The position numbers and the translations under genes are program-made. Below, in pieces: positions 5,115 to 35,600 of a DNA stretch of 64,000 bases (position 1 is its first letter; every line of letters begins with the position of its first letter). The notes below the pieces were generated by a model. The model saw only the letters and a list, made by a program, of their open reading frames with translations. It was not told the origin of the DNA and did not search any database. This stretch comes from an uncultured Acidimicrobiales bacterium (GTDB taxonomy: Bacteria > Actinomycetota > Acidimicrobiia > Acidimicrobiales > DATKAS01): contig CAVSCP010000006.1 of the NCBI GenBank assembly GCA_963726495.1, positions 140,312 through 204,311 on the forward strand, given 5' to 3'.

Positions 5115-6567
5115 TCATCGCGGCTCTCCCGTCTCCGGGTGCGTGTCGATCTGGGCCTTCTGCAGCCGGCCCGAGTAGTCGACGTACACCGTCTTGACCT
5201 GGCTGAACTGCTCGATGCCTCGGGTGCCGGCCTCGCGGAACCCGTTGCCGGTGTGCTTGGTGCCGCCGAACGGAAGCGGGATCTCGGCGCCGATCGTCGG
5301 TGCGTTCACGTACACGATTCCCGTGTCGATGCGGTCGACGAGCTGCAGCGCGGCGTTGATGTCCCGCGTGTAGACCGCGGCCGACAGCCCGTACTCGGAT
5401 GCGTTCACGACGTCGACGGCCTCTCCTCGTCGCCCACCTCGATCACCGACAGCACCGGCCCGAACACCTCTTCGCGGGCGATCGTGTGGTCGGGACGCAC
5501 ACCGGTCAGCACCGTCGGAGCGACGAACGCGCCGCCCTCGCAGCCCTCGACCTCGAGCACGTGCCCTCCGGTCACGACGGTGGCGCCCTCGGCGACCGCG
5601 CGCTCGATCATCCCGATGATGCGCTCAGCCGAGCGGCGATCGATCACGGGACCGACGTCGGTCGTGGCGACCGTCGGATCGCCGAGCACGAGCGCCTCGG
5701 CCCGCTTCGCGACGCGTTCGACGACTGCGGTCGCCACCGCGCGGTGCACCACGAGGCGCGACGTCGAGGTGCAGCGCTGGCCCGACGTGCCGAATGCGCC
5801 GAACAGCGCGCCTTCGACGACGAGGTCGAGGTCGGCATCGTCGAGGACGACCATCGCGTTCTTGCCGCCGAGCTCGAGCGACACGAGGCGGGGGCCGGTC
5901 TCCATCGCCCGTGCCGCGACGAGCCGGCCGGTGGGCACCGAGCCCGTGAACGAGAGCGCTCCGACGCCGGGGTGCACGGCGAGCGCCGCACCGGGCTCGC
6001 CGGCGCCGTGGACGACCTGGAGCAGCGCGGCCGGGATGCCCGCGGTCACCAGCGCGTCGACGAACGCATCGGCGCAGAGCGGCGTGTGCTCGGACGGCTT
6101 CAGCACGATCCCGTTGCCGGCGAGCAGCGCCGGGAAGCACTTCCACGACGGGATCGCGACCGGGAAGTTCCACGGCGTGATCATCCCGACCACCCCGATC
6201 GGCTGTCGCGTCGTCCAAGCCATCTTGTTGGACAGCTCGGAGGCCACCACGCTTCCCAGCGCGGCGCGGCCTTGGCCGGCGACGAACCGACCCATGTCGA
6301 CGGCTTCTTGCACGTCGCCTCCCGCCTCGACGAGCACCTTGCCCGCCTCGCGCGCGACGAGCTCCGCGAGCTGGCCCTTGCGGTCGGCGATGACGTCGGC
6401 AGCGCGGGCGATGAGGTCGGCGCGCGCAGGGATCGGGCGGCGAGCCCACTCCCGCTGCGCCTCGCTCGCCGCGCGACCGCGCGGTCGACGTCGGCCGCGG
6501 TTGCCGCGGTGAACGTGCCCAGCACCTCCGCCGGACGGGCCGGGTTGACGGAATCGAATGTCGCCAT
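5115..6567 (-). pseudogene. Aldehyde dehydrogenase family protein, two frameshifts (about 6475 and 5415)
   Basis: Three fragments: MATFDSVNPARPAEVLGTFTAATAADVDRAVA (within ORF 6181..6840); ORF 5405..6337 with GVVGMITPWNFP, LKPSEHTP, ELGGKNA and GQRCTS; ORF 5115..5408 with NASEYGLSAAVYT and PFGGTKHTGNG. My re-translation across 6475 restores AASEAQREWARRPIPARADLIARAADVIADRKGQLAELVAREAGK. Confidence 0.85.
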
Positions 6568-6617
6568 CGCCTCATTGTGTCCCGTCCTCCCCGGGCTCCC
6601 CCTAGCGTGCCGTCGCG

Positions 6618-8216
6618 GTGGCAGAGCCGCTCGTCCCGTTCGCGACTCGCTTCGCGCCGACCGCGATGGTGTCGACGATCGACCACCTCGCGACCGAAGC
6701 CGGGCTCGGCGTGCTGCGCGACGGCGGCAGCGCGGCCGACGCGGCGATCGCGTCGAACGCGGTGCTCGCGGTCGTGGCTCCGAACCTCTGCGGGATGGGC
6801 GGCGATCTCTTCGCACTCGTGTCACGAGACGACGAGCCACCAGCGACGCTGAACGCCGCGGGGCGCGCAGGGTCGGGCGCCGATGCCGCCCGGCTCCGAG
6901 CCGAAGGCTTCGTCGAGATGCCGTTCAAGGAAGACATCCGCTCGGTCACGGTGCCGGGCTGCGTCGACGGATGGCTCGCGCTCCACGAGCGGTTCGGGCG
7001 ACTCGGTCTCGATCGCGTGCTCGCTCCCGCGATCGGCTACGCCCGGGACGGGTTCCCCGCGTCGACCATGCTCGCGGCGTCGATCCCGGTGCTCCCTCCG
7101 CGGCCCGGATCGGAGGATCTGCGCGGCCCGACCGGCCAGCGCGCACCTGGCGAGGTGATCCGGAGACCGGGCGTCGCCCGTGCGCTCGACTGCGATCGTC
7201 TCGGACGGACGCGCCGGGTTCTACGAAGGCGAGTTCGGCGAAGGGCTCCTGAAGCTCGGCAACGGCGAGTACGCCGCGGCCGACTTCGAGAGCCCGGGGG
7301 CGCGATGGGTCGACCCGATCAGCGTCGAGGCGTTCGGGCACATCCTTTGGGGGATCCCGCCGAGCTCGCAGGGCTACCTCCTCCTCTCGAGCGCGTGGAT
7401 CGCGGATGGCCTGCCACTTCCTGACGACGCCGACGATCCGCTCTGGGCGCACCTGCTGATCGAGGCGTCGAAGCAGGCGGGCCACGACCGGCCCGCGGTG
7501 CTCGCACGACGCGGCCGACGGCCGCGCGCTCGTGAGCACCGAGCGCCTCGCGCCGCGTCGCGCAAGCGATCGCCGTCGACCGCGCCTCCCATCTCGGTGT
7601 CGGCGCGAGAGTCGGCGACACGACCGCGCTGTGCGTCGTCGACGGGGACGGCGTCGGCGTGTCGCTCATCCAGTCGAACGCCTCGGGCTTCGGGAGCCAC
7701 CTGTTCGAGCCGTCGACGGGCATCAACCTGCACAACCGCGGGCTCGGCTTCTCGGTCGAGGAAGGGCACCCGGCCGGAGTACGCGCCGGGACGGCAACCC
7801 CCACACACGCTCACTCCCGCGATGGTCACCGACCTCGACGGCCGGCTCGCCGCGGTGCTCGGGACGATGGGCGGCGACTCGCAGCCGCAGATCCTCTTGC
7901 AGATCCTGGCCCGCACGTTCGGGCTCGGCGAGTCACCGTCCCGAGCGATCGCAGCAGGACGGTTCCGCCTCTCGGCAAAGGAGCAGACCACGGGGTTCGC
8001 GATCTGGACCGACCCAGCGGGCACCGCCGTCGCCCTCGAAGGGCACGCGCCCTCCGGCATGGGCGGGCGGGCTCACGTGCCCGCGGGCACGAGGTCGCCA
8101 CCACCGCCGCGTTCGACCACGGCTTCGGTCACGCCCACCTCATCGTCGTCGACGACGGACACCTCGCCGGTGCCGCCGACCCGCGCGCCCGAACGGGTCT
8201 CTGCTCCGGGCTGTAG
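6618..8216 (+). pseudogene. ggt: Gamma-glutamyltransferase family protein, at least 5 frameshifts
   Basis: Fragments in ORFs 6618..7424, 7180..8424, 7532..8593 and 7659..8216. Motifs: GGSAADAAIASNAVLAVVAPNLCGMGGDLF, SVTVPGCVDGW, catalytic-Thr region GDTTALCVVDGDGVGVSLIQSNASGFGS, TLTPAMV, LGTMGGDSQPQILLQIL, and C-terminus AAFDHGFGHAHLIVVDDG. Confidence 0.8.
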
Positions 8217-8237
8217 CGGCGCTACCGTCGCGGCGCA

Positions 8238-9489
8238 GTGGGCATCCTCCTGGTTGGGGCGACAACCGCAGAGGGCGGGACGATCGACGTGCGCATCGAC
8301 GCAGGTCGCATCGCCGCGGTCGGCGCGCTCGAGCGGCTGCCCGACGACGAGGTGCACGACCTCACCGGATACGTCCTGCTCCCGGCGCCCGCCGAACCCC
8401 ATGCCCACCTCGACAAGGCGCTGACCGCGGACCGCGTGGTCAACCGCACGGGCGACCTCCTCGGCGCGATCGAGGCGTGGCACGCTGCCTGGCCCACCCT
8501 CACGAAGGACGACATCGTCCGAGCGCGCCCGCCGCGCGGCGCTGTCCGGTGTCGCGAACGGGCTCACCGCGATCCGCTCGCACGGCGACCTGAGCAGCGT
8601 GATCGGGCTGCGCAGCATGGAGGCGCTCGTCGAGGTCCGCGACGAGCTCCGCGACCTCGTCGACATCCAGGTCGTCGCGCTCATCGCGCTTCCGACTGCG
8701 GGGCTGGCGGGCGCGAACCACCGCGCGCTGCTGCGCGACGCGCTCGACCTGGGCGTCGACGTCGCCGGCGGGTGCCCGCACCTCGACGACGACCGCCTCG
8801 GCTGCCTCGAAGCCTGCTTGGAGGTGGCAGCCGCGGCGGGCCGCCCGATCGACCTCCACATCGACGAGACCCTCGAATCCCGAGGTGCTGGGGCTGCGTG
8901 ACTTCGCCCGCCTCGTCGTCGAGCACCGGCTTCCCCCACGGCGCGACCGCGAGCCACTGCGTGAGCCTCGGCATGCAGGAGGAGATATGTCCAGAAGGCC
9001 GTCGCCGCTGAAGTCGCCGAGGCCGGCATGGCCGTCGTCACTCTCCCCCAGACCAACCTCTTCCTGCAGGGCCACGGCCACGTGACAGGCATGCCTCGCG
9101 GCCTGACCGCGCTCCGGCCCCTGCTCGACGCCGGCGTGACCCTCGCGGGCGGCGCCGACAACGTGCAGGACCCGTTCAACACGATGGGCCGCGCCGACCC
9201 GCTCGAGACCGCTGCGCTGCTGGTGATGGCTGGCCACCTGCTCCCAGACGAGGCCTACGCCGCGGTCAGCGCGGGCGCACGCGCCGCGATGGGTCTCGAA
9301 CCGGTGTCGATCGCGGCTGGCTCGCCGGCCGAGCTGCTCGCGGTGCGAGCCACCACCCTCCGCGAGGCGATCGCCACCGCTCACCCCGACCGGCTCGTCT
9401 ATCACCGTGGCCGCCTCGTGGCCCAGACCCGGTCGACCACCGTCTTCGCCGACACAGTCCTCGCCGACACAGAGCGTTCACATGACTGA
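8238..9489 (+). pseudogene. Amidohydrolase, cytosine-deaminase-like (possible cytosine/creatinine-type deaminase), at least 3 frameshifts
   Basis: ORF 8238..9011 starts MGILLVGATT...LLPAPAEPHAHLDKA (HxH metal site). ORF 8599..8901 has GRPIDLHIDET. ORF 9028..9489 has TLPQTNLFLQG and GGADNVQDPFNTMGRADPLE. This is the layout of CodA-like amidohydrolases. Confidence 0.7.
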
Positions 9490-10303
9490 AGCAGTTCCTA
9501 CATCGGCCCTCCCTAGGGTGCCTGGCGTGGAGACCCTGGCTCCCGAGGCGGAGCGAACGCGTCCGAGCGCGGACGCCTCTCTCGTCTTCGACAACATCTC
9601 CAAGGCGTTCCCTGACGGCACGGTCGCGCTCGTCAACGTCTCGTTCGACGTGCGCCCCGGGGAGTTCGTCACCGTCGTCGGCCCGTCCGGCTGCGGCAAG
9701 TCCACGCTGCTGCGGATCGCGTCGGGCCTCACACCGACCTCGAGCGGGGTCGTCCGGGTCAACCGCGACAGCCTCGGCTACGTGTTCCAGGACCCGACGC
9801 TGCTGCAGTGGCGCACCGTTCGCCGCAACGTCGAGCTGCTCGCGGAGCTGCACGGCGTCGGCAAGACCGAGCGCGGCCGGCTCGCGCAGGAGGCGATCGA
9901 CCTCGTCGGGCTGACCGGCTTCGAGGACAAGTACCCCAAGCAGCTGTCGGGCGGCATGCGCATGCGCGCGTCGCTCGCGCGATCGCTCACCCTCAGCCCG
10001 AACGTGTTCCTGTTCGACGAGCCGTTCGGCGCGCTCGACGAGATCACCCGCGAGCGGCTCAACGACGAGCTGCTCACGTTGTTCTCGTCCAAGGGCTTCG
10101 CGTCGCTCTTCATCACTCACTCGATCTACGAGGCGGTCTTCCTCTCGACCCGGGTGATCGTGATGTCCGGCAGGCCCGGGCGCATCGTCGGCGACTTCGA
10201 GGTGCCATTCGGCTATCCCCGCGCTCCTGAGCTCCGGTTCGAGCCGAGCTTCGCCGAGCTGACCGGAGAGGTCTCGCACACGCTGAGAGGGGCCCACTCG
10301 TGA
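9482..10303 (+). CDS. ABC transporter ATP-binding protein (NitT/TauT, SsuB/TauB-like)
   Basis: Within ORF 9407..10303, starting at ATG 9482 (MTEAVPTS). Walker A GPSGCGKST, signature LSGGMRMR, Walker B FLFDEPFGALD. The stop overlaps the permease start (GTGA at 10300). Confidence 0.85.
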   Translation: MTEAVPTSALPRVPGVETLAPEAERTRPSADASLVFDNISKAFPDGTVALVNVSFDVRPGEFVTVVGPSGCGKSTLLRIASGLTPTSSGVVRVNRDSLGYVFQDPTLLQWRTVRRNVELLAELHGVGKTERGRLAQEAIDLVGLTGFEDKYPKQLSGGMRMRASLARSLTLSPNVFLFDEPFGALDEITRERLNDELLTLFSSKGFASLFITHSIYEAVFLSTRVIVMSGRPGRIVGDFEVPFGYPRAPELRFEPSFAELTGEVSHTLRGAHS

Positions 10304-11281
10304 CGTCGGTCGACGTGCGCCCGGTGCAAGACGAGCTCGAACAGGCGCTGCTCGAGCCACCGCCTCGGCGTTCGGCGTGGAAGTCGTTCCTCGTCGAGGT
10401 CATCGGACCGTTCATCGTCTTCTGGATCGTCATCGGCGTCTGGTACTTCATCTCGCTATCGCCTGCTGAAGCCTCACCGCCGGTTCCTCATGCCACCGCC
10501 TCACCGAGTGCTCGACGTCGCGTTCCTCGACAGCCGCAACCGCAACGAGCTGCTGCAGGGGCTGTGGAGCTCGACGAAGGTCGCGATGGTCGGCCTGGCG
10601 ATCGCGATCGTGCTCGGCATGCTCTTCGCGATCCTCATGAGCCAGGCGAAGTGGATCGAGCGCTCGCTCTTCCCCTATGCCGTCGTGCTCCAGACGATCC
10701 CGATCCTCGCGCTCGTGCCGCTGATCGGCTTCTGGTTCGACTTCAACTTCCGCAGCCGCGTGATCGTGTGCGTGCTGATCGCCATCTTCCCGATCATCAA
10801 CAACACGCTGTTCGGGTTGTTATCTGCTGACCAGGGCCAGCACGACCTCTTCACGCTGCACGACTCGAGTCGATTCACGCGCCTCTGGCGCCTGCAGCTG
10901 CCCGCGGGCATGCCCGCGATCTTCGCGGGCTTCCGCATCTCGGCCGGCCTGGCCGTGATCGGCGCGATCGTCGGCGACTTCTTCTTCCGGCAAGGCCAGC
11001 CGGGCATCGGGAAGCTCATCGACAACTACCGCTCGCGCCTCGAGTCCGAGAAGCTCTTCGGGGCGATCATCCTCTCGTCACTGCTCGGTCTCGTCGTCTT
11101 CTGGATCTTCGGGTTCATCGGGAACCGCGTCGTCGGCTCGTGGCACGAGACCGCCCGCAAGCAGTCCTCGACGCACGTTTCAGCAACACCAACAAGGAGG
11201 GCACATGCGCAAGACCACCAAGGCGGCCTGGCTCGCGGTTCCGCTGGCCGGCTTCCTGCTCCTCGCCGCGTGCGGGGATGA
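10300..11281 (+). pseudogene. ABC transporter permease (NitT/TauT family), frameshift near 10460
   Basis: ORF 10300..10830 N-terminus (FLVEVIGPFIVFWIVIGVWYFISL) continues in ORF 10490..11281 (LFPYAVVLQTIPILALVPLIGFWFDFNFRSRV...IFPIINNT...RLQLPAGMPAIFAGFRIS = EAA-loop region). The 3' end overlaps the next gene by 77 nt and is uncertain. Confidence 0.75.
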
Positions 11282-12426
11282 CAGCGGCTCGTCGTCCGCG
11301 ACGACGGGCGGAGGCGGCCACGACCGCGGTGGCGGGGCGGCCACCACCGGCGGCGGCGCGGCGACAACGGGCGCAGCCGGGGGCGACGCGACATCGCTCG
11401 CCAGCGTGTGCCCTGCGACCGTCGTCGTCCAGACCGACTGGAACCCCGAGGCCGAGCACGGCGGGCTGTACAAGCTGCTCGGGCCGAACCCGAGCGTCGA
11501 CACCGACAAGAAGATCGTGACCGGCGAGCTGACGGCGAGCGGCGGCGTCGACACCGGCGTCAAGATCGAGATCCGCGTCGGCGGCCCCGCGATCGGCTTC
11601 CAGCAGGTGACCGCGCAGATGTACACCGACGACTCGATCCTGCTCGGCTACGTGAGCACCGACGAGCAGGTGCAGCACTCGGCTGACAAGCCCACGGTCT
11701 CGCTGATCGCGCCGCTCAAGAAGAACCCGCAGATCATCATGTGGGATCCGGCGACCTACCCCGACGCGAAGACGATCGCCGACCTGCCCAAGGACACGAC
11801 GCTCCTCGTCTTCGACGGCGGCGTGTTCCCCGACTACCTCGTCGGCAAGGGCATCGTGCAGCAGAGCCAGATCGAGGGTGGCTACGACGGCACCCCCGCT
11901 CGGTTCGTCGCCGCGGACGGCAAGCTCGCCCAGCAGGGCTTCGCCTCGGCCGAGCCCTACATCTACGAGCACGAGGTGCCCGAGTGGGGCAAGCCCGTCG
12001 CGTTCCAGCTGATCCACGACACCGGGCTCGAGATCTACTCGCAGACGATCGGGACGAAGCCCGAGAACATCACGAAGTTCGCCGACTGCTTCAAGAAGCT
12101 GATCCCGATCATGCAGCAGGCCGACGTCGACTACGCGAAGGACCCGGCGGCGACCAACACGCTCATCGTCGAGCCTCGTGAAGCAGTACGACACCGGCTG
12201 GGTGTACAGCGAGGGCGTCGCCGACTTCTCGGTCGAGCAGCAGGTGAAGCTCGAGCTCGTCGGCAACGAGGACGGCTACTCCGGTGGCATGGACGAGGCC
12301 CGCGTGCAGGGCGTCATCGACAACCTGCTCCCGATCTTCGCCAAGCAGAACGTCACGGTGAAGGAAGGCGTGAGCCCCGCGGACATCATGGATCTGCAGT
12401 TCGTGGACAAGAACATCCAGTTCTGA
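11205..12426 (+). pseudogene. ABC substrate-binding lipoprotein (NMT1/THI5-like, NitT/TauT family), frameshift near 12170
   Basis: ORF 11205..12437 has a lipobox LLLAAC followed by a Gly/Thr-rich linker, then VVVQTDWNPEAEHGGLY. ORF 12178..12426 supplies the C-terminus. RBS AAGGAGG lies upstream of ATG 11205. Confidence 0.75.
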
Positions 12427-13549: not shown

Positions 13550-13550
13550 G

Positions 13551-14489: not shown

Positions 14490-14544
14490 CGGTGCTCTCT
14501 AGCATGTCGCTCGATGACGACTGGCCCGCCGACCTCGAGACCTG

Positions 14545-20429: not shown

Positions 20430-20434
20430 GGCAC

Positions 20435-21238: not shown

Positions 21239-21242
21239 TTCA

Positions 21243-21258
21243 GGCATCGTACGATGCC
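21243..21258. promoter_or_regulatory. Perfect 16-bp palindrome GGCATCGTACGATGCC in the 22-bp gap between divergent genes (operator candidate)
   Basis: Read directly. It sits between the creatininase start (21238, minus) and the flavoenzyme start (21261, plus). Confidence 0.35.
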
Positions 21259-22809: not shown

Positions 22810-22879
22810 CGATTTCTTCGGTGTTTCTCACTGCAGGGCGTATGGGGCACGTTGCGCCAAGAGATCCAGCCGGCCCGGC

Positions 22880-26934: not shown

Positions 26935-26959
26935 CGGGGGATTCTTGTCGGTCCCAGCC

Positions 26960-27019
26960 GACCGTTTGCTCACTGGGGGTTCGTGGGCCTGCGGTTTCCT
27001 CCGCAGTGAGCAAACGGTC
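26960..27019. promoter_or_regulatory. Perfect 16-bp inverted repeat with 28-nt spacer in a divergent promoter region
   Basis: GACCGTTTGCTCACTG (26960..26975) and CAGTGAGCAAACGGTC (27004..27019), read directly. They are flanked by a direct repeat TCCCAGCCG (26952..26960 and 27031..27039). The region lies between the coxM-like start (26934, minus) and the amidase start (27048, plus). Confidence 0.4.
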
Positions 27020-27047: not shown

Positions 27048-28232
27048 ATGCCGGCCGACGATCCGCTCGGCGCGCTGAAGATCGGACCCGCCGTGCTCGC
27101 CGAGGGCGCGGCTGACGGCGCCCTGGCCGGCACGACGTTCGTCGCGAAGGACCTCTACGACGTCGCGGGCTACCCGACCGGAGCGGGCAACCCTCAGTGG
27201 GAAGCGACCCACCCGGTGCCGACGACCACCTCCTCTGCCGTCACCCGCCTGCTCGCGCGGGCGCGACGCTCATCGGCAAGAGCCACACCGACGAGCTCGC
27301 CTACAGCCTCTCGGGCACGAACGTGCACTACGGCACGCCGGTCAACAGCGCCGCGCCGGGGTGCGTCCCAGGAGGTTCGTCATCGGGATCGGCGTCGGCA
27401 GTGGCGGGCGGGCTGTGCGACTTCGCGCTCGGATCGGACACCGGCGGCTCTGTGCGCGTGCCGGCGAGCTTCTGCGGGATCTTCGGGCTGCGGCCGACCC
27501 ACGGCCGCGTCGCTGCGGATGGCGTCGTGCCGCTCGCGCCGTCATTCGACGCGGTGGGCTGGTTCGCCAACAGCGGCGCTGTCCTGATGCAGGTCGGACG
27601 CGTGCTCCTCGACGCGGACTTCGACGAGACCGCGCACCTGGCGGCGACCAAGCTGGTGCTCGCTGACGACCTGCTCGCGGCGGTGCCCGATGAGGTCGCC
27701 GCGGTGGTCGAGGCGGCAGCGCGAGAAGCGGCCACTCGTCTCGACCTGCAGCTCGAGCGTGGTTCCGTCGCGGACGGCGACATCGCCTCGTGGGCCGACT
27801 GCTTCCGCACGCTCCAACGCGGCGAGGCATGGGCATGCCATGGCGACTGGATCACCGCCACGCGACCGTCGTTCGGCCCGGGCATCGCGCAGCGCTTCGC
27901 CGACGCATCGCACGTCACCCCTGAGGAGGTCGCGGCCGCTCAACGGCGGCGTGTCGAGATCCGAGACCGGGTCGCTCGGAGCACCGCGGGCGGCGTCGTG
28001 TTCGCTCTGCCACCCGCACAGGGTCCGGCCTATCGCGTCGACCTCGAAGGCCCAGCGAAGGAGGCCGTGCGGGCGGGCGCGTTGGCACTCACGTGCGCTG
28101 CCGGCCTCGCGGGCACGCCGCAGGTGACCGTTCACGGCGGCACGGTCGACGCGAAGCCGGTCGGGCTCGGCCTGCTCGGGGGCCCACGGGATGGACGAAG
28201 CGCTCCTCGCGATGGCCGCCGCGCTCGACTAG
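27048..28232 (+). pseudogene. Amidase (amidase-signature family), 2 frameshifts (about 27260 and 28185)
   Basis: ORF 27006..27587 from ATG 27048 (MPADDPL..FVAKDLYDVAGYPTGAGNP). ORF 27197..28651 (GKSHTDELAYSLSGTNVHYGTP..PGGSSSGSASAVA..ALGSDTGGSVRVPASFCG). My re-translation of the end gives HGMDEALLAMAAALD-TAG (28230..28232). Confidence 0.8.
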
Positions 28233-29608
28233 GGGATCTGGAACCTCGCCGCGACGCGGCGGTGCCACGTGAGCATCTCGTCGACTCGATCGTCGGCGAG
28301 GGCCCCGTCGCGCACGACCACCCGACCGGCGACGACCGTGTGCTTCGCCGCGCTCGGCCCGCACCGCAACCACGCCTCGACCGGATCGCTGATCGCGCCG
28401 GCATGCGCGATGTCGCCGGCGACCGGCCACACCACGAGATCGCCGACTGCGCCGACCGTGAGCTCACCGATCTCACCGGCGCGGCCGAGGCACCCGGCGC
28501 TGCCGCGAGTCGCGATCTCCAGCGCGTCACGCGCGCCCGTCGACGCCGGACCTCCGCGCAGCCTCCCGAGGAGCATCGCGTTGCGCGCCTCCATCCAGAG
28601 CGAAGCCGAGTCGGTGGACGACGACCCGTCGCATCCGAGACCGACGGGTGAGCCAGCCGCGCGCATCGCGGCAACGGGAGCGATCCCGCCCCCGCCGATC
28701 ATCATGTTCGAGCTCGGGCAGTGCGCGACGCCCACGCCCGCCCGGCCGAGCCCCGCGACCTCGGCCTCGTTCGGGTAGATGCAGTGCGCGACCCAGCTGC
28801 GATCGGTCATCCACCCGACCGACTCGAAGTGGTCGATCGTGCGCCCGCCGAACTTCTCCGCCGCGAACCTGTCTTCGTCGGGGTCCTCGGCAAGGTGAGT
28901 GTGCAAACGCACGTCGAGCCGCTCGGCCAGCTCTGCGGTCCGCACCATCAGCTCGGAGGTCACGCTGAACGGCGAGCACGGCGCGAGCGCGATCCGCACC
29001 ATCGCACCCCGCGCTCGGTCGTGGTGCAACGCGACCAAGCGCTCGGAGTCGGCGAGGATCTCGTCGTCGTCCTGCACGACCGAGTCGGGCGGGAGCCCAC
29101 CGTCCTTCTCCGACAGGCTCATCGACCCCCGCGTCGGATGGAAGCGCATGCCGAGCTCGGTCGCGGCTCGGATCTCGGCGCTGATCAGGTCGCCACCGCC
29201 CCGCGGATGCACGTAGAGGTGATCGGTGGACGTCGTGCACCCCCCGAGAGCGAGCTCGGCGAGCCCGATCCATGCGGACACGTACGCGGCTTCCTCGTCG
29301 AGCCGGCTCCAGAGCGGATAGAGCGCCGTCAGCCAGTCGAAGAGCGATGCGACCGTCGCGGGCCGATAGGCGCGCGTGAGGTTCTGGTAGATGTGGTGAT
29401 GGGTGTTGATCAGCCCCGGCGTCACCAAGCACCCGCTCGCGTCGAGCACGACCTCGGCCGTCGGCATCGCGTCAGCCGAACCTCCGACAGCGCTCACGAA
29501 GCCGTCGGTGACCGCGACCCATCCACCCGCGATCTCACGGCGCTCGGCGTCCATCGTCGCGACGAGATCCGCGCCTCGCACGAGCAGATCGACAGGTGCG
29601 TCGGCCAC
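28229..29608 (-). CDS. Amidohydrolase of the 8-oxoguanine deaminase / AtzB-like group
   Basis: Intact 459-aa ORF. Motifs: TPGLINTHHHIYQNLTRA, RLHTHLAE, VAHCPSSN and GLGCDGSSSTD. Confidence 0.8.
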   Translation of the reverse strand: MADAPVDLLVRGADLVATMDAERREIAGGWVAVTDGFVSAVGGSADAMPTAEVVLDASGCLVTPGLINTHHHIYQNLTRAYRPATVASLFDWLTALYPLWSRLDEEAAYVSAWIGLAELALGGCTTSTDHLYVHPRGGGDLISAEIRAATELGMRFHPTRGSMSLSEKDGGLPPDSVVQDDDEILADSERLVALHHDRARGAMVRIALAPCSPFSVTSELMVRTAELAERLDVRLHTHLAEDPDEDRFAAEKFGGRTIDHFESVGWMTDRSWVAHCIYPNEAEVAGLGRAGVGVAHCPSSNMMIGGGGIAPVAAMRAAGSPVGLGCDGSSSTDSASLWMEARNAMLLGRLRGGPASTGARDALEIATRGSAGCLGRAGEIGELTVGAVGDLVVWPVAGDIAHAGAISDPVEAWLRCGPSAAKHTVVAGRVVVRDGALADDRVDEMLTWHRRVAARFQIP

Positions 29609-29611
29609 GCG

Positions 29612-30025
29612 TCAGACCCGCATGCCGGCGACGGCCTCGACCTCGATCTCCACCTTCCATGCGGGGTCGAGCAGCGCCTTGACCACGAGCGTCGTGTTCG
29701 CCGGGCGGGTGTCCGCGAACAGCTCGCCGTGCACCGCGCCGATCTCGTCGAAGTCCTGCGCCTCGACGAGGAAGATGCGCGTGCGAACGACGTCGGCGAG
29801 CGTGGCGCCCGCTTCGCGGAGGGCGGCCTCGATGATCTCGAAGCACCGCCGCGCCTGCACGGTCGGGCTGGGGTCGACATGCCCGTCCGGCCACTGTGGC
29901 GCGGTGCCGGCAACGAAGATGCGGTCGCCCACCCGCACCGCTCTGCTGTATCCGACGATCAGCTCGTACGGCCCGCCCGACGAGACGAGCTGCCGGTGTT
30001 CGCTCACGCGTCCTCCCTGTTGCAC
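29612..30025 (-). CDS. RidA (YjgF/Rid) family protein
   Basis: Intact ORF with YSRAVRVGDRIFVAGT and VVRTRIFL...VEIEVEA. The start may be GTG (VSEHRQL) 18 nt downstream of 30025. Confidence 0.85.
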   Translation of the reverse strand: MQQGGRVSEHRQLVSSGGPYELIVGYSRAVRVGDRIFVAGTAPQWPDGHVDPSPTVQARRCFEIIEAALREAGATLADVVRTRIFLVEAQDFDEIGAVHGELFADTRPANTTLVVKALLDPAWKVEIEVEAVAGMRV

Positions 30026-30047
30026 GGGCGCTCACGCGCCCTCCTGT

Positions 30048-31060
30048 TCACACGGCCCAATCTGCAAACGCGTCGATCATGAGCCGGACATCATCGCCCA
30101 GCGGGTACAGGATCGGGCACGTACTTCCGGCGGCGACGTACTCGGCGACCTTCGCGCGGCACTCGTCGGGCGTGCCCGAGGCGGTGATCATCTGCACGAT
30201 GTCGTCGGGCACGAGCTTCGACGCGGCGACGACCTGCTCGTGGGTCGCCGGCCACGTGAGCACCTTGCCGATCTCGTCGAGCAGCGACTCGGGCACGCCA
30301 CGACGCCTTCATGATGTGGGGCTGCTGGCCGAGGTACTGGGTGACGAGGAGGCGCGAGCGCATCGAGCGCGCGGCCGCGATCTTCGTCGAGCGAGCACAC
30401 GACGAGCTGCGGCCGGTCGATCGTCGTCGAGCGTCGCGTCCCGCCTTGGCCGCGCCCCTCGCGAGATGCTCGAGCGCGGTCGCGTTGTACGCGGGAGACA
30501 CGAGGTAGTTGAGGACCACGCCGTCGGCGATCTCGCCCGTGAGCTCCATCATCTGCATGCCCGTGGCGCCGATGTAGATGGGGACGTCCTTCGGCTCGCG
30601 CTCCTGATGCACGTAGTCGAGCTCGACGCCGTCGAGGTGCACGAACTCGCCGTCGAACGTGACGGTCTCGTTCGGCGAGCAGCGCCGCGGACGGCCTCGA
30701 CGATCTCGCGCATGGCCTTGAGCGGCCTCGCCCGGTCGACGCCGACCTTCCGCGGCGAGCGGGTCCCACCACGCGCCGATCCCGAGGATCACGCGACCCG
30801 GGGCGAGGTCGTCGAGGGTGGAGAACGTCGACGCGAGCAGCGCGGGGTTGCGGGTCCACATCGCGACCACGCCGCTGACCGACCTTGATGCGCTCGGTGA
30901 CCGCAGCGAACGCGGCCATCGGCACCGTCGCCTCGCGCACCAGCCGGCTCTCGGCCTGCCACACCGCCTCGAACCCGCGCTCCTCGGCGTACCGCACGTA
31001 GTCCATCGCCTCGCGGAGCGGGTGGGCGTCCTGGAGGTACAGCGCGACGGGTGCGGCCAT
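30048..31060 (-). pseudogene. LLM-class oxidoreductase, 3 or more frameshifts
   Basis: [61 protein letters not shown] (ORF 30188..31192 from ATG 31060). ORF 30091..30870 ([36 protein letters not shown]...[29 protein letters not shown]). ORF 30048..30296 gives the C-terminus. Confidence 0.75.
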
Positions 31061-31067
31061 CAGTCGG

Positions 31068-32099
31068 TCATAGCAGCCGGTGGAGGCGCCTGGCTTGCTC
31101 GGCGGCCTGCGCGCGCACCTCGATCGGGTCGACCCGGGTCGCGACGCCGTCGCGCAGCACGACCTCACCGTCGATCTCGACGTCGACGGCACGGACGTCG
31201 GTGGTGAAGGCGAGCGACCACGGATCCATCGCGTCGTACGACCACCGCACGACGTCGCCGCGGGCCTCCGGCACCAGCTGCCATCCGTTCTCGAGCCACG
31301 ACCACGCCGCCTCGGGTGAGGCCTCGACGTCGTCCTCGCGATGACGTACGAAGGCGAGGCGGAACTCGTCGAGCATGTCTGCCCCGATGCCGTCGGTGCC
31401 GAGCACGATCGGGTTCGATCGCGACGCGGGCCTCGCGTAGCCGACGGCGTTGTTCATGTTCGAGCGCGGGTTGTGCGCGATCGTGCCCGGCAGGTCTTGT
31501 TCGAGGTGCACGGCGTGGACGAGCAGCCACGACTCGTCTGCGAGCGCGGCGAGCCGCTTCCCCGCGTCCGAGTCGACCGTCCCCTCGGCGACGTGGATGT
31601 GGACGCCGACGCCGAGGTCGCGCGCGAGGCCGGCGGCCGCCTCGAGCGTCTCGTCGCTGCACGTGAACGCGGCGTGGACACCGACGAGCCCTCGTCCCCC
31701 GCCGCGGAGGAACCGCTCGTTCTCGGCCAGCCCGCGCCGAGCACCCGTCGGCGCCGTGGCGGTCGGTCACGCCGTAGGCGCACACGACCCGCACGCCGAC
31801 CTCGGCGGCACGCGTCGGCGATCACGTCGAGCGAGCCCTCGATCGCGTGAGGGCGACTCGTGATGGTCGACGATCGCAGTCGTTCCGCACTCGAGCGCCT
31901 CGAGCGCGCCGAGCATCGCCGACCACCTCAGCATCTCGAGGTCGAGCGCGACGTCGAGCCTCCACCAGACCTGCTCGAGGATCTCGACGAACGTCGTCGG
32001 TGTGCGCGGTGGCGAAGGCATGCCGCGAGCGAGCGCCGAGTACAGGTGATGGTGCGCGCAGACGAGCCCGGGCGTCGTCGCGCTCACGCGGCGAGTCAC
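31068..32099 (-). pseudogene. ssnA: SsnA-like putative aminohydrolase, about 3 frameshifts, short N-terminus
   Basis: TPGLVCAHHHLYSALARGMP..FVEILEQVWWRLDVALD..GALEALECGTTAIVDHHESP (ORF 31767..32156). VRVVCAYGVTDRHG (ORF 31165..31794). [32 protein letters not shown] (ORF 31068..31511). These parallel E. coli SsnA PGIVCSHNHFYSGLSRGI / LWWRLDRALD / VIDHHASP / HNARSNMNNHVGY / LGTDGIGSDMFEEMKFAF as I recall it. GTG 32099 overlaps the upstream stop (GTGA). Confidence 0.75.
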
Positions 32100-34702
32100 T
32101 CGTCGGTGTCGGAGCCCGACGACGCGCCGCGGCGCATCGGCAGCGTGGAGCGCCATGCGCCGTCGAGGTCGTGCAAGGCGGCAGCCACCGCGCCCGCCGT
32201 GGGCACCAGGCCGATCTCACCGACACCCTTGATGCCGTACGGCGCGTTCGGCTGCGGAGACTCGACGAGGATCACCTCGACGCGCGGCATGTCCTTCGGG
32301 CGGATGATGCCGAGGCTCTTCAGCGTCATGTTCGTCGGCCGGCCCTCGGCGTCGGCCGGGAAGTCCTCGGTGAGCGCGTAGCCGAGACCCATGTGCACCG
32401 AGCCTTCGATCTGGCCCTCGCACAGCAGAGGGTTGACGGCGCGGCCCACGTCGTGCGCAGCGACGACCTTGTCGACGTTGCCACTCTCGCGATCGACGAC
32501 GACGAGCTGCGACGCGTAGCCGAACGTCGAGTGGATCACCGGGTGCTCGAGGCCCTCGGCGAGCGAGTTCGTCCAGTCGACGCGGTACTCGCCCTCGTAG
32601 TCGACGCCCGGCTTGCAGCCAGCGGCGCGCGCGGCCTCGCACGCCGCCTTCACCGAGCCCGCACCCATCAACGTGCCTCGGCTGCCGGTCGTCTGGCCCG
32701 CGCCGAGCTCGCGGGACGTGTCGACGAGCACGCGGATGCGCGTCGGGGTCGACCTGCAGCTCCTCGACCGCGACCTGACGGGCCACGGTGTGCACGCCCT
32801 GCCCCATCTCCGTCCAGCAGTGCCGGACCTCGATGGTGCCGTCCTCCTCGAACCGCACGACCGCGCGCGCGATCTCCTTGAAGCCGTTGCCGAGGCCCGA
32901 GTTCTTGAGCCCGAGGCCGAGCCCGACGGCGGCTCCCGAGGCGACTGCGTCGTCGTAGGCCGGCTTGATCGCGTCGAGGCACGCACGCGCGCCGAGGCAG
33001 CCGTCGTCCATGATCTGACCGGGTCCCCACACCGAGCCCGGGGTCACGACGTTGCGCGCACGGATCTCCCAGCCTGAGATCCCGACCGCGTCGGCGAGGC
33101 GATCGAGCACGCCCTCCATCGCGAACTGCGCCTGGTTCGCGCCGAAGCCGCGGAACGCGCCACACACCGGGTTGTTCGTGCGGGCCGCGATCGAGTCGAC
33201 GTCGATCGCCGGCACCACGTACGGACCACTGGCGTGCCCTGCCGACCGCTCGAGCACCTTCATCCCGACCGAGGCGTACGGGCCGGAGTCGCCGACCATG
33301 CGCGCCCGCAGCGCGGTGAGCCGTCCGTCGTCGTCGCAACCGGCCCAGTACTCCATCCGGATCGGGTGCCGCTTCGGGTGGATCAGCAACGACTCCTCAC
33401 GCGAGAGCGTGCACTTCACGGGCCGCCCGGTCAGCCACGACGCCAGCGCGGTCTGGGCCTGGTTGGACATGTCCTCCTTGCCGCCGAACGCGCCGCCGTT
33501 CGCGACGAGCTCGACCGTCACGCGTCCCGCGTCGATGCCGAGCACCGACGCGATCTGGTCGCGGTCGTCCCAGACCCCCTGGCCTCCCGACCACACGTGC
33601 AGCCCATCGGACCCGTCGGGCAGGACCACCGGCGCGACGAGGGTCGACTCGGGCTCGAGGAACGCGTGCTCGATGCGCTGGGTCTGGAACACCTCGTGCA
33701 CGACGTGCGCGCTCGCCGCCAGCGCGGCATCGACGTCGCCGCGCGCATACGTCGACCGCGACAGCACGTTGCCTTCGAGACCCCACACCGCGTCGTCCGC
33801 GCCGGACGCGATGGCCTGCGCGCGGATCGACGATCGGCGGCAGCGGCCGATAGTCGACTTGGACGAGCTGTGCGGCGGCGCGGGCGGTCTCGCGGTCCTC
33901 CGCGACGACCATCGCGAGGACGTCACCCAGATAGGAGGTGCGCCCGCCTTCGGGGATGAAGATCGGCCAGTCCTTGTGGATCAACCCGACGCGGAGCGCG
34001 CCAGGTATGTCGGCGGCGGTGAGGACGCGCACGACACCCGGCACCGCGGCCGCGGCCGTCACGTCGATGCCGACGACGTCGGCGCGGGCGTGCGCCGCGA
34101 GATGAAACGCGCCGTGGAGCATGCCGGGAAGGACGAGGTCGTCGACATACGGCTTGTCGCCGAGCGAGAGCTCGAGGCCCTCGTAGCGAAGTCCGCTCGT
34201 GCCGACACCGCCGCACGCGGGTGGTTCGACGTCGCCACCCGTGCGCGAGCAGCTCGATCGCATCGAGGATCTTCACGTAGCCCGTGCACCGGCAGAGGTG
34301 CGCGCCGAGGTGGCGCGCCGCGTCTTGACGCGTCAGGTCGGCGCCCTTCTTCGCGATCAGCGCCTTCGTGCGCATCACGATGCCGGGCGTGCAGAACCCA
34401 CACTGCAGGGCGCCGGTCGACGCGAAGACCCTCGCGTAGCGATCGCGCTCCTCGGTGGGCATGCCTTCGAGGGTCGTGATCCCCCGACCGGCGGTCTTGG
34501 CGAGCGACGTCTGGCAGCTCACCTGCGCCTTGCCGTCGAGCAGCACCGTGCAACACCCGCACTGCCCCGACGGCGAGCACCCGTCCTTCGGCGAGAGGAC
34601 GCCGAGCTCCTCGCGCAGCGCGGCGAGCAGGTGGGGATGGTCGCCACGGCACGACACCGAGATGCCGTTGAGCACGAAGGAGACAGGTTCGGCGCCGATC
34701 AC
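32096..34702 (-). pseudogene. Molybdopterin-dependent hydroxylase with fused N-terminal [2Fe-2S] domains and no FAD domain (XdhD/Mop-type), about 3 frameshifts
   Basis: ORF 33923..34702 (CSPSGQCGCCTV, QCGFCTPG, CRCTGY). ORF 33397..34263 (GTSGLRYEGLELSLGDKPYVDD..ADIPG). ORF 32217..33926 (IEHAFLEPES..GGAFGGKED..NNPVCGAFRGFG..EMGQGV). ORF 32096..32986 (GQIEGSVHMGLG..GIKGVGE). The FeS and Moco parts join in one polypeptide near 34250. Confidence 0.8.
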
Positions 34703-34718
34703 CCCAGTCTAGGAAGTG

Positions 34719-35600
34719 TCACCGGCGGGAACGGCCCCCGAGCGCGTCGAGCACGATCGCAAGGTTCGCGTCACACCAGGCCACGGCGGTCCAGTGCGAC
34801 GACGCCCGGTAGCGATCCTGGGCGTCGACGAACCGGTCCGCGGCCTCGTTCAGACGGCCCTCCTCGGCGAGCAGCACCCCGAGGTTCTGATCGCACCACG
34901 CAACCGGGAGCTCGACCTCGGCCGCGAGGAACCCGGCGCGCGCCTCGCGCACCCGCTCCATCGCATCACTCGAGCGCTGCTGCTCCCACAGCACGAACGA
35001 CTCGTTGAACGCAACCGACGCGAGGTCTGCGGCGCTGTTCGCGAAGCACGCGCGCGCGTCGGCGAAGTGGTCGAGCGCCGCGTCGAGCTCGCCGGCCTTG
35101 GCACGGAGCACGCCGAGATCGTTGTCGCAGACGCCCGCGTCGCGGAGCTGATCGGCCTTCGTGAAGAGCTCACGCGCGCTCACCAGCAAGGTGACGACGT
35201 CGCGGTCGCGGCCCAGGCTGTGCAGCACCGCGGCGAGCTGCTGCTCGCACGCGGCGAGCTCGGCGGGGTCGCTCTGCCCGTCGAGCAGCTTGCGGCGAGC
35301 GGCGGCGAGGCGCTTGCTCGCATCGAGCGGACGCCCGAGCGCGAGGAGAAGCCGCGCCGCGAGCCGATCGCACAGGATCTCGCCCTGCGAGTCGCCTGAA
35401 GCGAAGAAGGCCTCACGCGCCTCGTCGATCGCCTCGAGCGCCTCGTTCGGCCGCTGCCGACCTTGGAGCCCGACCGCGAGGCGCGCGAGCGCCCGGGCCC
35501 GGCGCGCGGGATCGTCCGTGTGGGACTCGTCCCGGAGCCTGGCCAGCTCGTCGAGCGCGTCGAGGTTCTGGCCGTCCCCGTCCGCGCCCGTGTGATCCAC
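34719..35600 (-). CDS. TPR-like repeat protein (first gene of the xdhD/ssnA operon?)
   Basis: Part of ORF 34719..35888 from GTG 35600, preceded by GGAGAGAAGGGG. It contains repeated roughly 40-aa helical units (for example ...AWCDQNLGVLLAEEGRLNEAADRFVDAQDRY...). Only 16 nt separate it from the next gene. Confidence 0.6.
   Translation of the reverse strand: MDHTGADGDGQNLDALDELARLRDESHTDDPARRARALARLAVGLQGRQRPNEALEAIDEAREAFFASGDSQGEILCDRLAARLLLALGRPLDASKRLAAARRKLLDGQSDPAELAACEQQLAAVLHSLGRDRDVVTLLVSARELFTKADQLRDAGVCDNDLGVLRAKAGELDAALDHFADARACFANSAADLASVAFNESFVLWEQQRSSDAMERVREARAGFLAAEVELPVAWCDQNLGVLLAEEGRLNEAADRFVDAQDRYRASSHWTAVAWCDANLAIVLDALGGRSRR

Follow-up and report, generated by a model that had tools for sequence, protein, structure and literature searches.

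What compound is broken down by the nitrogen-metabolism enzymes crowded into one block of the genome of an uncultured soil actinobacterium (order Acidimicrobiales), and do these enzymes belong to one pathway? The window, meaning the whole 64-kb stretch of contig CAVSCP010000006.1 that was analysed, carries this block at ca. 5.1–35.7 kb. The original prediction took it for a single 30-kb island for the breakdown of an N-heterocycle or cyclic amide, which it left unnamed and could not map to a named pathway. Catabolism of N-heterocycles is borne out by the analysis, and for the right half of the block (17.8–35.7 kb) the substrate can be named as purine or urate; for the left half (5.1–17.8 kb) it stays as the prediction had it. 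The right half is probably a purine-catabolic supercluster of three transcription units, whose core corresponds to the reductive urate pathway, as a little-studied environmental variant with unrelated enzymes in several places.

The reductive uric-acid pathway was characterised in 2025 in E. coli, C. difficile and C. sporogenes (Li et al., PMC12507026); the work of Liu et al. 2025 is taken here as far as it is summarised by Percudani (PMC12990295). According to these sources (PMC12507026, PMC12990295), XdhD reduces urate to 2,8-dioxopurine, and YgfK or UacX then carries out a reductive dearomatisation coupled to ring opening by SsnA, giving ureidomethyl-hydantoin. HyuA opens the hydantoin to 2,3-diureidopropionate, the two ureido groups are cleaved by YgeW/UacY (2-ureido) and YgeY (3-ureido), and YgeX turns 2,3-diaminopropionate into pyruvate and ammonia. 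The marker of such clusters is SsnA (IPR017700, TIGR03314); of the two dearomatising reductases, YgfK belongs to IPR017701 and UacX to PF01180. The ureido intermediates have been proposed to have the R (D) configuration (Percudani 2025, PMC12990295).

The purine core and its predicted reactions

Genes were rebuilt by segmentation with a hidden Markov model (HMM) of codon-position G+C (GC3-frame), followed by stitching of the frames. The stitched proteins were searched against NCBIfam, Pfam and the sequences of the PDB, and the Pfam labels of orthologous genes were also used. Coordinates are positions in the window, and genes of the right half lie on the minus strand unless stated otherwise.

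The central gene of the core (32096–34696, three frameshifts) encodes a fused, XdhD-like enzyme with two [2Fe-2S] domains and a molybdenum cofactor (Moco) domain. It aligns over its full length with the TIGR03311 family (model positions 2–843 of 848). The stitched protein scored 814 bits, and the related proteins P0001 (same population), P0043 and P0119 scored 825, 808 and 847 bits, against a cut-off of 830.45. The architecture is MOP-like, without an FAD domain, and among solved structures D. gigas MOP comes nearest. XdhD-like genes carry the name "aldehyde oxidoreductase" in many metagenome-assembled genomes (MAGs).

Immediately downstream is a gene for an SsnA-like amidohydrolase (31068–32090, at least one frameshift). 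SsnA models alone match its intact orthologue at E <= 1e-20 (NF005540, 275 bits; TIGR03314, 261 bits). Residues 49–438 of E. coli SsnA align with it at 34% identity, and the protein keeps the motifs HxH, DHHASP, HIHxAED, RSNMNNxVGY and LGTDGIG.

The next gene (30048–31055, ca. four frameshifts) encodes LLM-3, an F420-type luciferase-like (LLM) oxidoreductase. Its orthologue matches the F420 enzyme Mer (TIGR03555, 178 bits), and every NCBIfam match listed is an F420 LLM family. Of 13 PDB matches, the top ten are without exception F420 enzymes (Mer, FGD, fHMAD and Adf; E = 4.6e-41 to 1e-13), and the first luciferase-type entry, alkanal monooxygenase, ranks later (E = 1e-11). The best 120 database matches of LLM-3 are 79–91% identical, and those with an organism name are MAGs of Acidimicrobiales or Acidimicrobiia. 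The protein is unusually conserved – in the same organisms the XdhD orthologues are ca. 72–77% identical and the SsnA-like orthologues ca. 58–66%. Such proteins now go under the name "methylenetetrahydromethanopterin reductase" or under that of a generic flavin oxidoreductase.

Two further deaminases follow: a RidA-family imine/enamine deaminase (29612–30010; TIGR00004, 66 bits, under the cut-off of 106; the orthologue in relative L002 is labelled PF01042) and an 8-oxoguanine deaminase encoded by an intact ORF (28229–29611; NF006055, 589 bits, cut-off 532). Beyond these is a three-subunit xanthine dehydrogenase (XDH), encoded by adjacent, overlapping genes of one operon. The FAD subunit (26115–26961) matches XdhB models (163–172 bits), and its orthologues in the related genomes L001 and L002 are labelled PF00941 and PF03450. 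The subunit with two [2Fe-2S] domains (25641–26114) matches XdhC/PucE models (141–156 bits) and is 52% identical to E. coli XdhC. The Moco subunit (23347–25640, at least two frameshifts) is of the PucD type, with 843 bits on TIGR03196 pucD (cut-off 783.65), and its orthologue in L002 is intact at 763 aa. The FeS and Moco subunits are called as a single 922-aa product in L001 and as two overlapping genes in L002. Both Moco subunits of the core, that of XDH and that of the fused enzyme, keep the purine-type motifs GGKE/GARE, ER, RGFG and GVGE, which presumably correspond to Glu802, Arg880, Phe914 and Glu1261 of bovine XOR. The last gene of the XDH operon encodes a type-I phosphoribosyltransferase (PRTase; 22880–23350) that is weakly xanthine-PRT-like (NF006613, 60 bits, under the cut-off of 138).

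In L002, the relative whose XdhD-like protein is 89% identical, these genes are one tight operon: nine genes on the same strand, with gaps of −4 to +23 nt, in the order XdhD-like, SsnA-like, LLM, RidA, 8-oxoguanine deaminase, XDH FAD, FeS and Moco subunits, and PRTase. The window has the same order apart from an amidase-signature gene on the plus strand (27093–28232), which is inserted between the 8-oxoguanine deaminase and XDH genes and has no counterpart there in L002. Its product belongs to PRK08310 (NF006169, 452 bits, cut-off 391), whose relatives include AtzE and allophanate hydrolase.

The second unit consists of carbamoylase genes. It begins with a creatininase-family cyclic-amide hydrolase (20435–21247), which scores 138 bits on TIGR03964 and 100 bits on TIGR04448, both under cut-off, and matches creatinine amidohydrolase in the PDB (65 bits). 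Next is an M20 amidase of the hydantoinase/carbamoylase family (19162–20442), which passes the cut-offs of NF006769 (476 bits, cut-off 452) and TIGR01879 (395 bits, cut-off 204). The third gene, an intact ORF (18235–19161), encodes an N-carbamoyl-D-amino-acid hydrolase (D-carbamoylase) of the CN-hydrolase type, which matches PDB 8i99 over its full length (422 bits, E = 1.4e-125, residues 1–305 to 1–307) as well as the Agrobacterium enzymes 1erz and 1fo6. The last gene encodes a DUF6941 protein (17772–18221; Pfam PF22091, 86 bits) and has the same position in L001 and in L088, a further relative. Between the carbamoylase and XDH operons, on the plus strand, is a CrtI/amine-oxidase-like FAD enzyme (21270–22826, at least four frameshifts; CrtO-like, 127 bits, far under cut-off), whose orthologue in L001 has 514 aa and the labels PF01593 and PF13450. 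Upstream of the fused enzyme is a TPR-repeat protein (34719–35640; Pfam TPR_12, 45 bits), which has the same position in L002.

The family assignments come from the searches above, and the reactions proposed here are predicted from them. The PucD-type XDH would convert hypoxanthine and xanthine to urate, and the 8-oxoguanine deaminase would convert 8-oxoguanine to urate. Judging from its family and context, the XdhD-like enzyme may then remove the 6-oxo group of urate, giving 2,8-dioxopurine. LLM-3 is a candidate to reduce and dearomatise 2,8-dioxopurine with F420H2, in place of YgfK or UacX; this role is suggested because its adjacency is conserved and because it is strictly mutually exclusive with YgfK-like genes in relatives. 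By homology, the SsnA-like enzyme would open the ring of the reduced dioxopurine. For the opening of the hydantoin, the creatininase-family hydrolase is a speculative candidate stand-in for HyuA. The D-carbamoylase would remove the 2-ureido group, the role of UacY/YgeW, and the M20 enzyme, as a beta/L-carbamoylase, would remove the 3-ureido group, the role of YgeY, giving 2,3-diaminopropionate. These two roles are proposed because of close homology to characterised carbamoylases and because the genes are directly upstream of XdhD in most relatives; a D-carbamoylase also fits because the alpha-ureido group of 2,3-diureidopropionate is proposed to be D, the other group being a beta-ureido group. 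RidA would clear the enamine/imine released by a diaminopropionate ammonia-lyase, which must be encoded elsewhere.

Conservation and proposed gene replacement in Acidimicrobiia

One genome per GTDB species was scanned. At least 560 stretches encode relatives of the XdhD-like protein, and the best 80 of these (L007–L086) were examined. All 80 are from environmental MAGs, nearly all labelled Acidimicrobiia or Actinomycetota. Three loci (L025, L072 and L080) are from MAGs labelled Acidobacteriota, Chthoniobacterales and Bifidobacterium; their XdhD is 72–73% identical to the Acidimicrobiales protein, and these are likely mis-binned contigs. A gene was counted as a neighbour if it was within 10 kb of the XdhD orthologue, with at least 40% identity and at least 50% coverage.

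The SsnA-like gene was a neighbour in 73 of the 80 loci and was directly downstream of XdhD in 50. LLM-3 was found in 50 loci, directly after XdhD–SsnA in 31, and the D-carbamoylase in 49, usually immediately upstream. The M20 gene was found in 38 loci and the XDH subunits in 25–31. Less frequent were the 8-oxoguanine-deaminase-like gene (17 of 80; a homologue 47% identical to the window's protein, with 554 bits and so above cut-off, is in the clusters of 15–17 species) and the PRTase, which adjoins XDH genes (12 of 80). The creatininase-family gene was near XdhD in three species, and the RidA, CrtI-like and TPR genes in two each; the CrtI-like gene is kept only in close relatives. Where the canonical order is present it reads (XDH), M20, D-carbamoylase, XdhD, SsnA, then LLM or YgfK, then YgeX or another lyase of the PALP fold. 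The clustering exceeds chance, since the synteny is conserved. It extends over the class for the core of the right half and only to close relatives for the left half.

Several of these loci also encode enzymes of the reductive pathway itself. A YgeX-type diaminopropionate ammonia-lyase is found in 11–12 loci (NF006058, 330 bits, cut-off 276; de novo clustering of neighbouring ORFs), a YgfK-like protein of ca. 600 aa, matching TIGR03315 at positions 4–398, in 11 (de novo clustering), and a HyuA-type D-hydantoinase in 2–4 (TIGR02033, 477 bits, cut-off 393). The same clustering showed pairs of YgeW/YqeA-like genes in three loci and YgeY-like genes in three. Locus L029 has the M20, D-carbamoylase, XdhD, SsnA, LLM, YgeX and HyuA genes in a single row. 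Two uncharacterised families of the PLP-dependent PALP fold, one of ca. 507 aa (23 loci; no NCBIfam match) and one of ca. 401 aa (13 loci), are often an adjacent pair (for example in L014, L020, L021, L044, L066 and L067) and may replace or complement YgeX. A protein of ca. 139 aa with an HTH_22 domain (PF13309) recurs in 17 loci (for example L009, L012, L024, L028 and L029) and is a candidate regulator. The relatives also carry BMP-type nucleoside ABC transporters and adenine deaminases, and yqeB-like fragments are in just two of the 80 loci. Among the other recurrent neighbours (BMP lipoproteins, an EamA transporter, an ECF sigma factor, a carboxyltransferase and others), no alternative hydantoinase was seen, judged by eye. 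A different amidase family is present in ten loci, directly after the LLM gene in six.

A second LLM family, ca. 30% identical to LLM-3, lies between XdhD and the SsnA-like gene in L030, L038, L046, L047, L051 and L060. These six loci are marine or sponge-associated, and four of them also have an LLM-3 orthologue, on the opposite strand.

Presumed replacement of one enzyme by another was counted in those loci, 56 in all, that extend for at least 8 kb in each direction. LLM-3 only was present in 36 of these and a YgfK-like gene only in 12; none had both, and 48 had one or the other. The same pattern was seen for D-carbamoylase (33 loci) against YgeW-like genes (three) and for M20 (26) against YgeY-like genes (two), again with no locus having both. 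In a tree of XdhD, the YgfK-type loci form at least three separate groups, so the presence of YgfK is not one inherited event.

The left half, the flanks and sequence quality

In none of the 80 species was an orthologue of a left-half gene found less than 10 kb from XdhD, and for that reason the left half is treated as separate. It consists of separate units, and only close relatives have these joined to the purine core. The block is not the one island of the original prediction. Genes of the left half are on the plus strand unless stated otherwise.

The first gene, on the minus strand, encodes an aldehyde dehydrogenase (ALDH; 5115–6571, one frameshift). Its best NCBIfam matches are alpha-ketoglutaric semialdehyde and 2,5-dioxovalerate dehydrogenases (ca. 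395 bits, under cut-off), and orthologues (PF00171) have a matching place in L087 and L088, relatives whose substrate-binding proteins are 84% and 72% identical. A gamma-glutamyltransferase (GGT; 6611–8216, ca. five frameshifts; PF01019, 284 bits; TIGR00066, 189 bits) is conserved in both. Next is an amidohydrolase like cytosine deaminase and AtzC (8217–9489), with 143–185 bits on cytosine deaminase subfamilies (under cut-off); its intact orthologue matches CodA (129 bits) and AtzC (120 bits) in the PDB.

The amidohydrolase is followed by an ABC importer of the NitT/TauT (taurine/nitrate/sulfonate) type. Its ATPase (9482–10303) is best matched by TauB and NtrCD (177–183 bits), and its permease (10300–11190, one frameshift, 3' end approximate), of the SsuC/TauC type, by SaoP and SsuC; the permease orthologue in L001 has 289 aa and the label PF00528. 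The lipoprotein substrate-binding protein (11205–12426) had no Pfam match and no sequence match in the PDB. Its AlphaFold2 (AF2) model (pLDDT 84.5) is closest to ThiY (3ix1; E = 1.5e-15, TM 0.75) and also resembles the thiamin-binding protein 4nmy, Thi5, TauA and SsuA, and one homologue (56% identity) carries PF09084. The NMT1/THI5-type assignment made by the original prediction is thus right at the level of the fold.

Two more F420-type luciferase-like oxidoreductases are on the minus strand. The strongest NCBIfam matches of LLM-1 (12533–13627) are F420 LLM families (Mer-like, 142 bits), and FMN-dependent families follow at E = 1e-6 to 1e-7; no LLM-1 orthologue was found near XdhD in the 80 other species. 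LLM-2 (13551–14498, three frameshifts; Mer-like, 127 bits) is intact in L087 (310 aa). The best matches of all three LLM proteins are F420 enzymes, the possibility that had been raised for them. A two-domain protein like rhodanese and 3-mercaptopyruvate sulfurtransferase (14518–15346; NF008557, 153 bits, under the cut-off of 250; PF00581 in the L087 orthologue) and a short-chain dehydrogenase/reductase (SDR; 15363–16058; FabG-like, 179 bits; adh_short in the orthologues of L001 and L087) come next. An Xre/MbcA/ParS-type antitoxin (16113–16475; PF09722) and a RES-domain toxin (16473–17012; PF08808) form a toxin–antitoxin module that is conserved in place in L001, L087 and L088 and is unrelated to the catabolic genes around it. 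The half ends with a member of the DinB/mycothiol-dependent maleylpyruvate-isomerase (MDMPI) family (17031–17768; TIGR03083, 75 bits, cut-off 50), labelled MDMPI_N/C in L001 and absent from L088.

In L087 and L088 the order is ALDH, GGT, cytosine-deaminase-like enzyme, ABC ATPase, permease, substrate-binding protein, LLM, LLM, rhodanese, SDR, Xre, RES, (MDMPI), (DUF6941), D-carbamoylase, M20, creatininase, CrtI-like enzyme and PRT. L088 has in addition an RpiR-type regulator and an aminotransferase. In Modestobacter muralis (L089, 52% identity), the module of amidohydrolase, ABC ATPase, permease and binding protein is all that survives of the left half. Its neighbours there are two more amidohydrolases, a creatininase-family gene, a PALP enzyme, FAD_binding_4 oxidases and a PNPOx-like protein; the region is read as a separate N-heterocycle cluster, and it might reveal the substrate of the left half. 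The left half may act on an oxidised purine or on some other amino-heterocycle. Among the genes under the control of the xanthine/urate riboswitch, those for NMT1/THI5-like and TauA-type transporters are the most frequent (Yu and Breaker 2020, PMC7373994), and because of this precedent a purine-related substrate is plausible, if unproven.

With both halves described, the gene inventory of the original prediction can be seen to be real and nearly all correct once ca. 30 frameshifts are stitched. It had listed two Moco hydroxylases of different architecture, three-subunit and fused; the cytosine-deaminase-like, 8-oxoguanine-deaminase-like, SsnA-like and amidase-signature enzymes; the D- and L-type N-carbamoyl-amino-acid hydrolases (here the D-carbamoylase and the M20 enzyme) and the creatininase-family enzyme; RidA, GGT, ALDH, the CrtI-like flavoprotein, the rhodanese and the PRTase; and the NitT/TauT importer. 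All of these are confirmed by matches to profiles or PDB entries or by the Pfam labels of orthologues. Missing from it were the Xre/RES pair, the SDR, the DinB/MDMPI and DUF6941 proteins and the TPR protein. It had also seen no classical regulator and no XdhC-type chaperone in the span, and none was found there by NCBIfam scans or by tblastn with E. coli proteins (XdhC/YqeB-type chaperones); the sole DNA-binding candidate found by Pfam in the span is the Xre-type antitoxin. No tRNA and no Rfam match or riboswitch was found in the window.

The G+C content is ca. 70% across the window, and the plain ORF list is dominated by spurious frames because of this composition and the frameshifts. According to the GC3-frame HMM, the reading frame changes within genes ca. 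30 times from 5.1 to 35.7 kb. A single public contig, L001 (ena:ERZ25039520:contig_23279, 545.5 kb), a long-read Acidimicrobiales MAG of the same population, encodes an exact copy of the window's intact CN-hydrolase protein. L001 aligns with the window at 96–98% identity, and the alignment has 78 gap openings in ca. 21 kb. Since other genes are broken in L001, and the orthologues in the related assemblies L002 and L087 are unbroken, the frameshifts are long-read assembly errors of the homopolymer type and not pseudogenes. The closest proteins that bear an organism name are from MAGs labelled Acidimicrobiales, Acidimicrobiaceae or Actinomycetota. A horizontally acquired island was considered and rejected – the G+C content of the block is level with its flanks, and there is no compositional island.

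Directly flanking the cluster are genes for an adenylate kinase (plus strand) and a PPK2-family polyphosphate kinase (minus strand) at 35750–37360. They have the same position in L002 and belong to nucleotide metabolism, with no evidence of a link to the cluster. Three tandem SBP_bac_5 peptide-binding genes, two permeases, two oligopeptide-type ATPases and a TetR regulator follow on the plus strand (37500–48050); these were annotated by eye and from the Pfam labels of L002 orthologues, and several are frameshifted. The region 52000–64000, judged from translations only, appears to be for cell-envelope glycosylation, with large polytopic membrane proteins, a GtrA-like/glycosyltransferase set, an acyltransferase-3, methyltransferases and an FAD/NAD oxidoreductase.

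Alternative explanations and known systems

The right half could instead belong to conventional oxidative purine catabolism, with both Moco enzymes making urate, the M20 enzyme acting as an allantoate amidohydrolase, and the remaining hydrolases working in a ureide route, with uricase and allantoinase encoded elsewhere in the genome. The PucD-type subunit passes its cut-off, TIGR03311 is named for xanthine dehydrogenase, the NF006769 subfamily passed by the M20 protein is that of "allantoate amidohydrolase", and motif inspection shows purine-type residues in both Moco subunits. The M20 orthologue, however, is nearer to solved N-carbamoyl-beta-alanine amidohydrolase (beta-ureidopropionase) and L-carbamoylase (294 bits) than to allantoate amidohydrolase, AllC (210 bits). 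Uricase, HIU hydrolase, OHCU decarboxylase, allantoinase and ureidoglycine hydrolase were absent from the scanned proteins of the island (its flanks were judged from the Pfam labels of orthologues), and none of the five was among the recurrent neighbour families annotated in the 80 loci. The oxidative route would leave unexplained the nearly universal triad of XdhD, SsnA-like enzyme and LLM or YgfK, and the recurrence of YgeX and HyuA; it seems unlikely. A further alternative is the "xanthinase" (Rabinowitz) pathway of Clostridia, with the SsnA-like protein as xanthine amidohydrolase and the M20 enzyme as ureidoimidazole-carboxylate amidohydrolase, leading to formiminoglycine. An oxygen-independent purine route with an amidohydrolase and ureido hydrolases is known in Clostridia and Bacilli (PMC12507026, PMC12990295). 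It is hardly credible here: the amidohydrolase matches SsnA models only, and the YgeX, YgfK-like and HyuA genes of the relatives belong to the reductive pathway.

Two other explanations concern the unity of the block. If the whole 30 kb were one island for an unnamed N-heterocycle or cyclic amide (pterin, hydantoin, creatinine-like or barbiturate-like), the purine labels would be a family resemblance. L087 and L088 keep the full block order, the left half has no assignable pathway, several enzymes are under equivalog cut-offs, and in Modestobacter the module of amidohydrolase and ThiY-fold importer occurs with a creatininase-family gene. Yet past the close relatives only the right-half genes stay together, strand switches and the toxin–antitoxin pair divide the block into at least eight units, and the right half specifically matches purine enzymes and the reductive urate pathway, all of which makes a single island distinctly unlikely. 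The opposite extreme is very unlikely, namely a mosaic of unrelated nitrogen-metabolism genes which rearrangement has brought together in a single lineage and of which only those of the XDH operon share a pathway. It would account for the detachment of the M20 and D-carbamoylase genes from XdhD in this lineage, for the amidase inserted on the opposite strand, and for the lineage-specific creatininase, RidA, CrtI-like and TPR genes. But XdhD, the SsnA-like enzyme, LLM, D-carbamoylase and M20 are tightly spaced neighbours in most of the 80 species, and the patterns of displacement are ordered rather than random. For the core, a random mosaic is excluded by class-wide synteny.

A variant of the reductive urate pathway is therefore the preferred reading of the right half, and a number of points weigh against it. 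The absence of overlap between LLM-3 and YgfK-like genes has a hypergeometric P of 2e-7 when phylogenetic non-independence is ignored, and just ca. 3–4 independent switches between the two are visible. The SsnA-like protein is far under the cut-offs of 444 (NF005540) and 455 (TIGR03314), and the N-terminal ca. 48 residues of E. coli SsnA are missing from it. E. coli XdhD is 27–37% identical to both the fused enzyme and the PucD-type subunit, and no closer to the former than to the latter. Its Glu606, tied to substrate orientation by Li et al. (PMC12507026), sits in a 10-residue insertion that neither the Acidimicrobiia proteins nor XdhA have; since E. coli XdhD alone has it among the proteins compared, it has no discriminating power, and it was dropped as a diagnostic. 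No gene for a YgfM-type FAD partner is beside the XdhD-like gene, and since TIGR03311 is named xanthine dehydrogenase, the fused enzyme could run in the oxidative direction. The use of F420 rather than FMN by LLM-3 is predicted from its relatives, and the NCBI name of its orthologues is just "LLM class flavin-dependent oxidoreductase". RidA is linked to the cluster only in close relatives, and the creatininase-family gene is just as marginal in the counts given above. With the E. coli ygeW–xdhD cluster as query, tblastn matches in the window were limited to SsnA, XdhA/B/C/D, YgfM and GuaD; homologues of YgfK, HyuA, YgeW, YgeY, YgeX, YqeA, YqeB, YqeC and MocA were absent from the 64 kb, so the window by itself holds an incomplete pathway. 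Representatives of the PALP lyases, HyuA, the HTH_22 regulator and the YgfK-like protein from related loci also found no match in the window.

A broader interpretation joins these observations and is offered tentatively, as possible but doubtful. The reductive urate pathway, so far one of the "anaerobic gut", may be a major environmental purine route of the whole class Acidimicrobiia, including soil, activated-sludge, marine and sponge-symbiont members. The oxygen-sensitive Fe-S flavoenzyme YgfK would have been replaced by an F420-dependent LLM, YgeW/UacY by a D-carbamoylase and YgeY by a beta-carbamoylase, and in this lineage the creatininase-family enzyme would be a new ureidomethyl-hydantoin hydrolase. 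Electrons from the oxidation of xanthine might be passed to the reduction of urate, for a net isomerisation of xanthine to 2,8-dioxopurine without an external reductant; this is conceivable because XDH and XdhD share one operon in L002. The pathway has been described as restricted to obligate or facultative anaerobes, and it has been asked whether it arose in ancient times or as a recent adaptation to the gut (PMC12990295). A conserved variant in at least 560 stretches from species-representative genomes bears on that question. The loci also offer candidates for an Fe-S-free, probably F420-dependent 2,8-dioxopurine reductase and for carbamoylases of the D and beta types that would stand in by hydrolysis. 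Uricolytic strains might be engineered more simply with these enzymes than with YgfK, for which Fe-S clusters have to be reconstituted.

Among known systems, the original prediction had set aside the textbook uricase/allantoinase, Rut, reductive-pyrimidine, creatinine and s-triazine routes, and none of these is what the block encodes. Its suggestion of an undescribed system does not hold for the core, which appears to be an Acidimicrobiia-wide environmental variant of the pathway described in 2025. The nearest parallels each share part of the block. As in the NMT1-motif riboswitch regulons of Proteobacteria, NMT1/THI5-like binding proteins and TauA-type ABC genes occur with purine-oxidation and 8-hydroxyguanine-deaminase-like genes (PMC7373994); unlike in those regulons, no riboswitch was found in the window, and the association is by adjacency in close relatives only. 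The carbamoylase operon is like those of the industrial "hydantoinase process" in having a D-carbamoylase and an M20 carbamoylase behind a cyclic-amide hydrolase. It differs in that this hydrolase is of the creatininase family, rather than a dihydropyrimidinase-type or ATP-dependent hydantoinase, and in that both carbamoylases are directly upstream of XdhD in most relatives.

The XDH operon resembles PucABCDE of Bacillus subtilis: its large subunit passes the pucD equivalog, and it also encodes the FeS and FAD subunits. It lacks adjacent PucA/PucB (XdhC/MobA-like) maturation genes, and it is joined with the PRTase and, in L002, with the XdhD–SsnA–LLM genes. The fused enzyme is like the TIGR03311 "selenium-dependent xanthine dehydrogenase" in its full-length match, its fused 2Fe2S–Moco architecture and its lack of an FAD domain, and unlike it in that the scores straddle 830.45 and no yqeB/yqeC homologue is in the window; there was no selD among the annotated genes of the window, where no separate selD query was made. 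The exemplar of TIGR03311 is presumably the enzyme of Enterococcus faecalis.

The closest system is the reductive urate cluster. In both, a fused FeS–Moco XDH homologue has an amidohydrolase that is SsnA or SsnA-like and a reductase as neighbours; a pair of hydrolases for ureido groups is nearby, one of them M20 and the other acting on a D-alpha-ureido acid; and there is a link with XDH, with deaminases of purines and with their salvage or transport. Relatives of the window carry true YgeX and HyuA genes as well as YgfK-like, YgeW-like, YqeA-like and YgeY-like genes. The match is one of pathway and not gene for gene: the XdhD-like and SsnA-like proteins alone are homologous to the characterised enzymes, and the rest are replaced by analogues or missing. 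The window has no HyuA, YgeW/UacY, YgeY, YgeX, YgfM partner or YqeB/YqeC/MocA maturation genes, its SsnA-like protein is N-terminally shorter and under cut-off, its fused enzyme is without the Glu606 insertion, and its host is an environmental member of the Acidimicrobiales rather than a gut anaerobe. In the position of YgfK/UacX it has an F420-type LLM.

This last feature has a precedent in Chloroflexota. Li et al. (PMC12507026) noted SsnA neighbourhoods in that phylum without YgfK/UacX and suggested a variant with a putative reductase of the F420/luciferase family. In that variant (their Fig. 3c), as in the window, a PF00296 LLM is beside SsnA/XdhD-type genes. It was described as a colouring of neighbourhoods alone, without analysis of Acidimicrobiia, a test of exclusivity or the downstream substitutions; the exclusivity counts from the loci examined here give the idea a quantitative footing in a different phylum. 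Both cases point to a putative F420-dependent 2,8-dioxopurine reductase.

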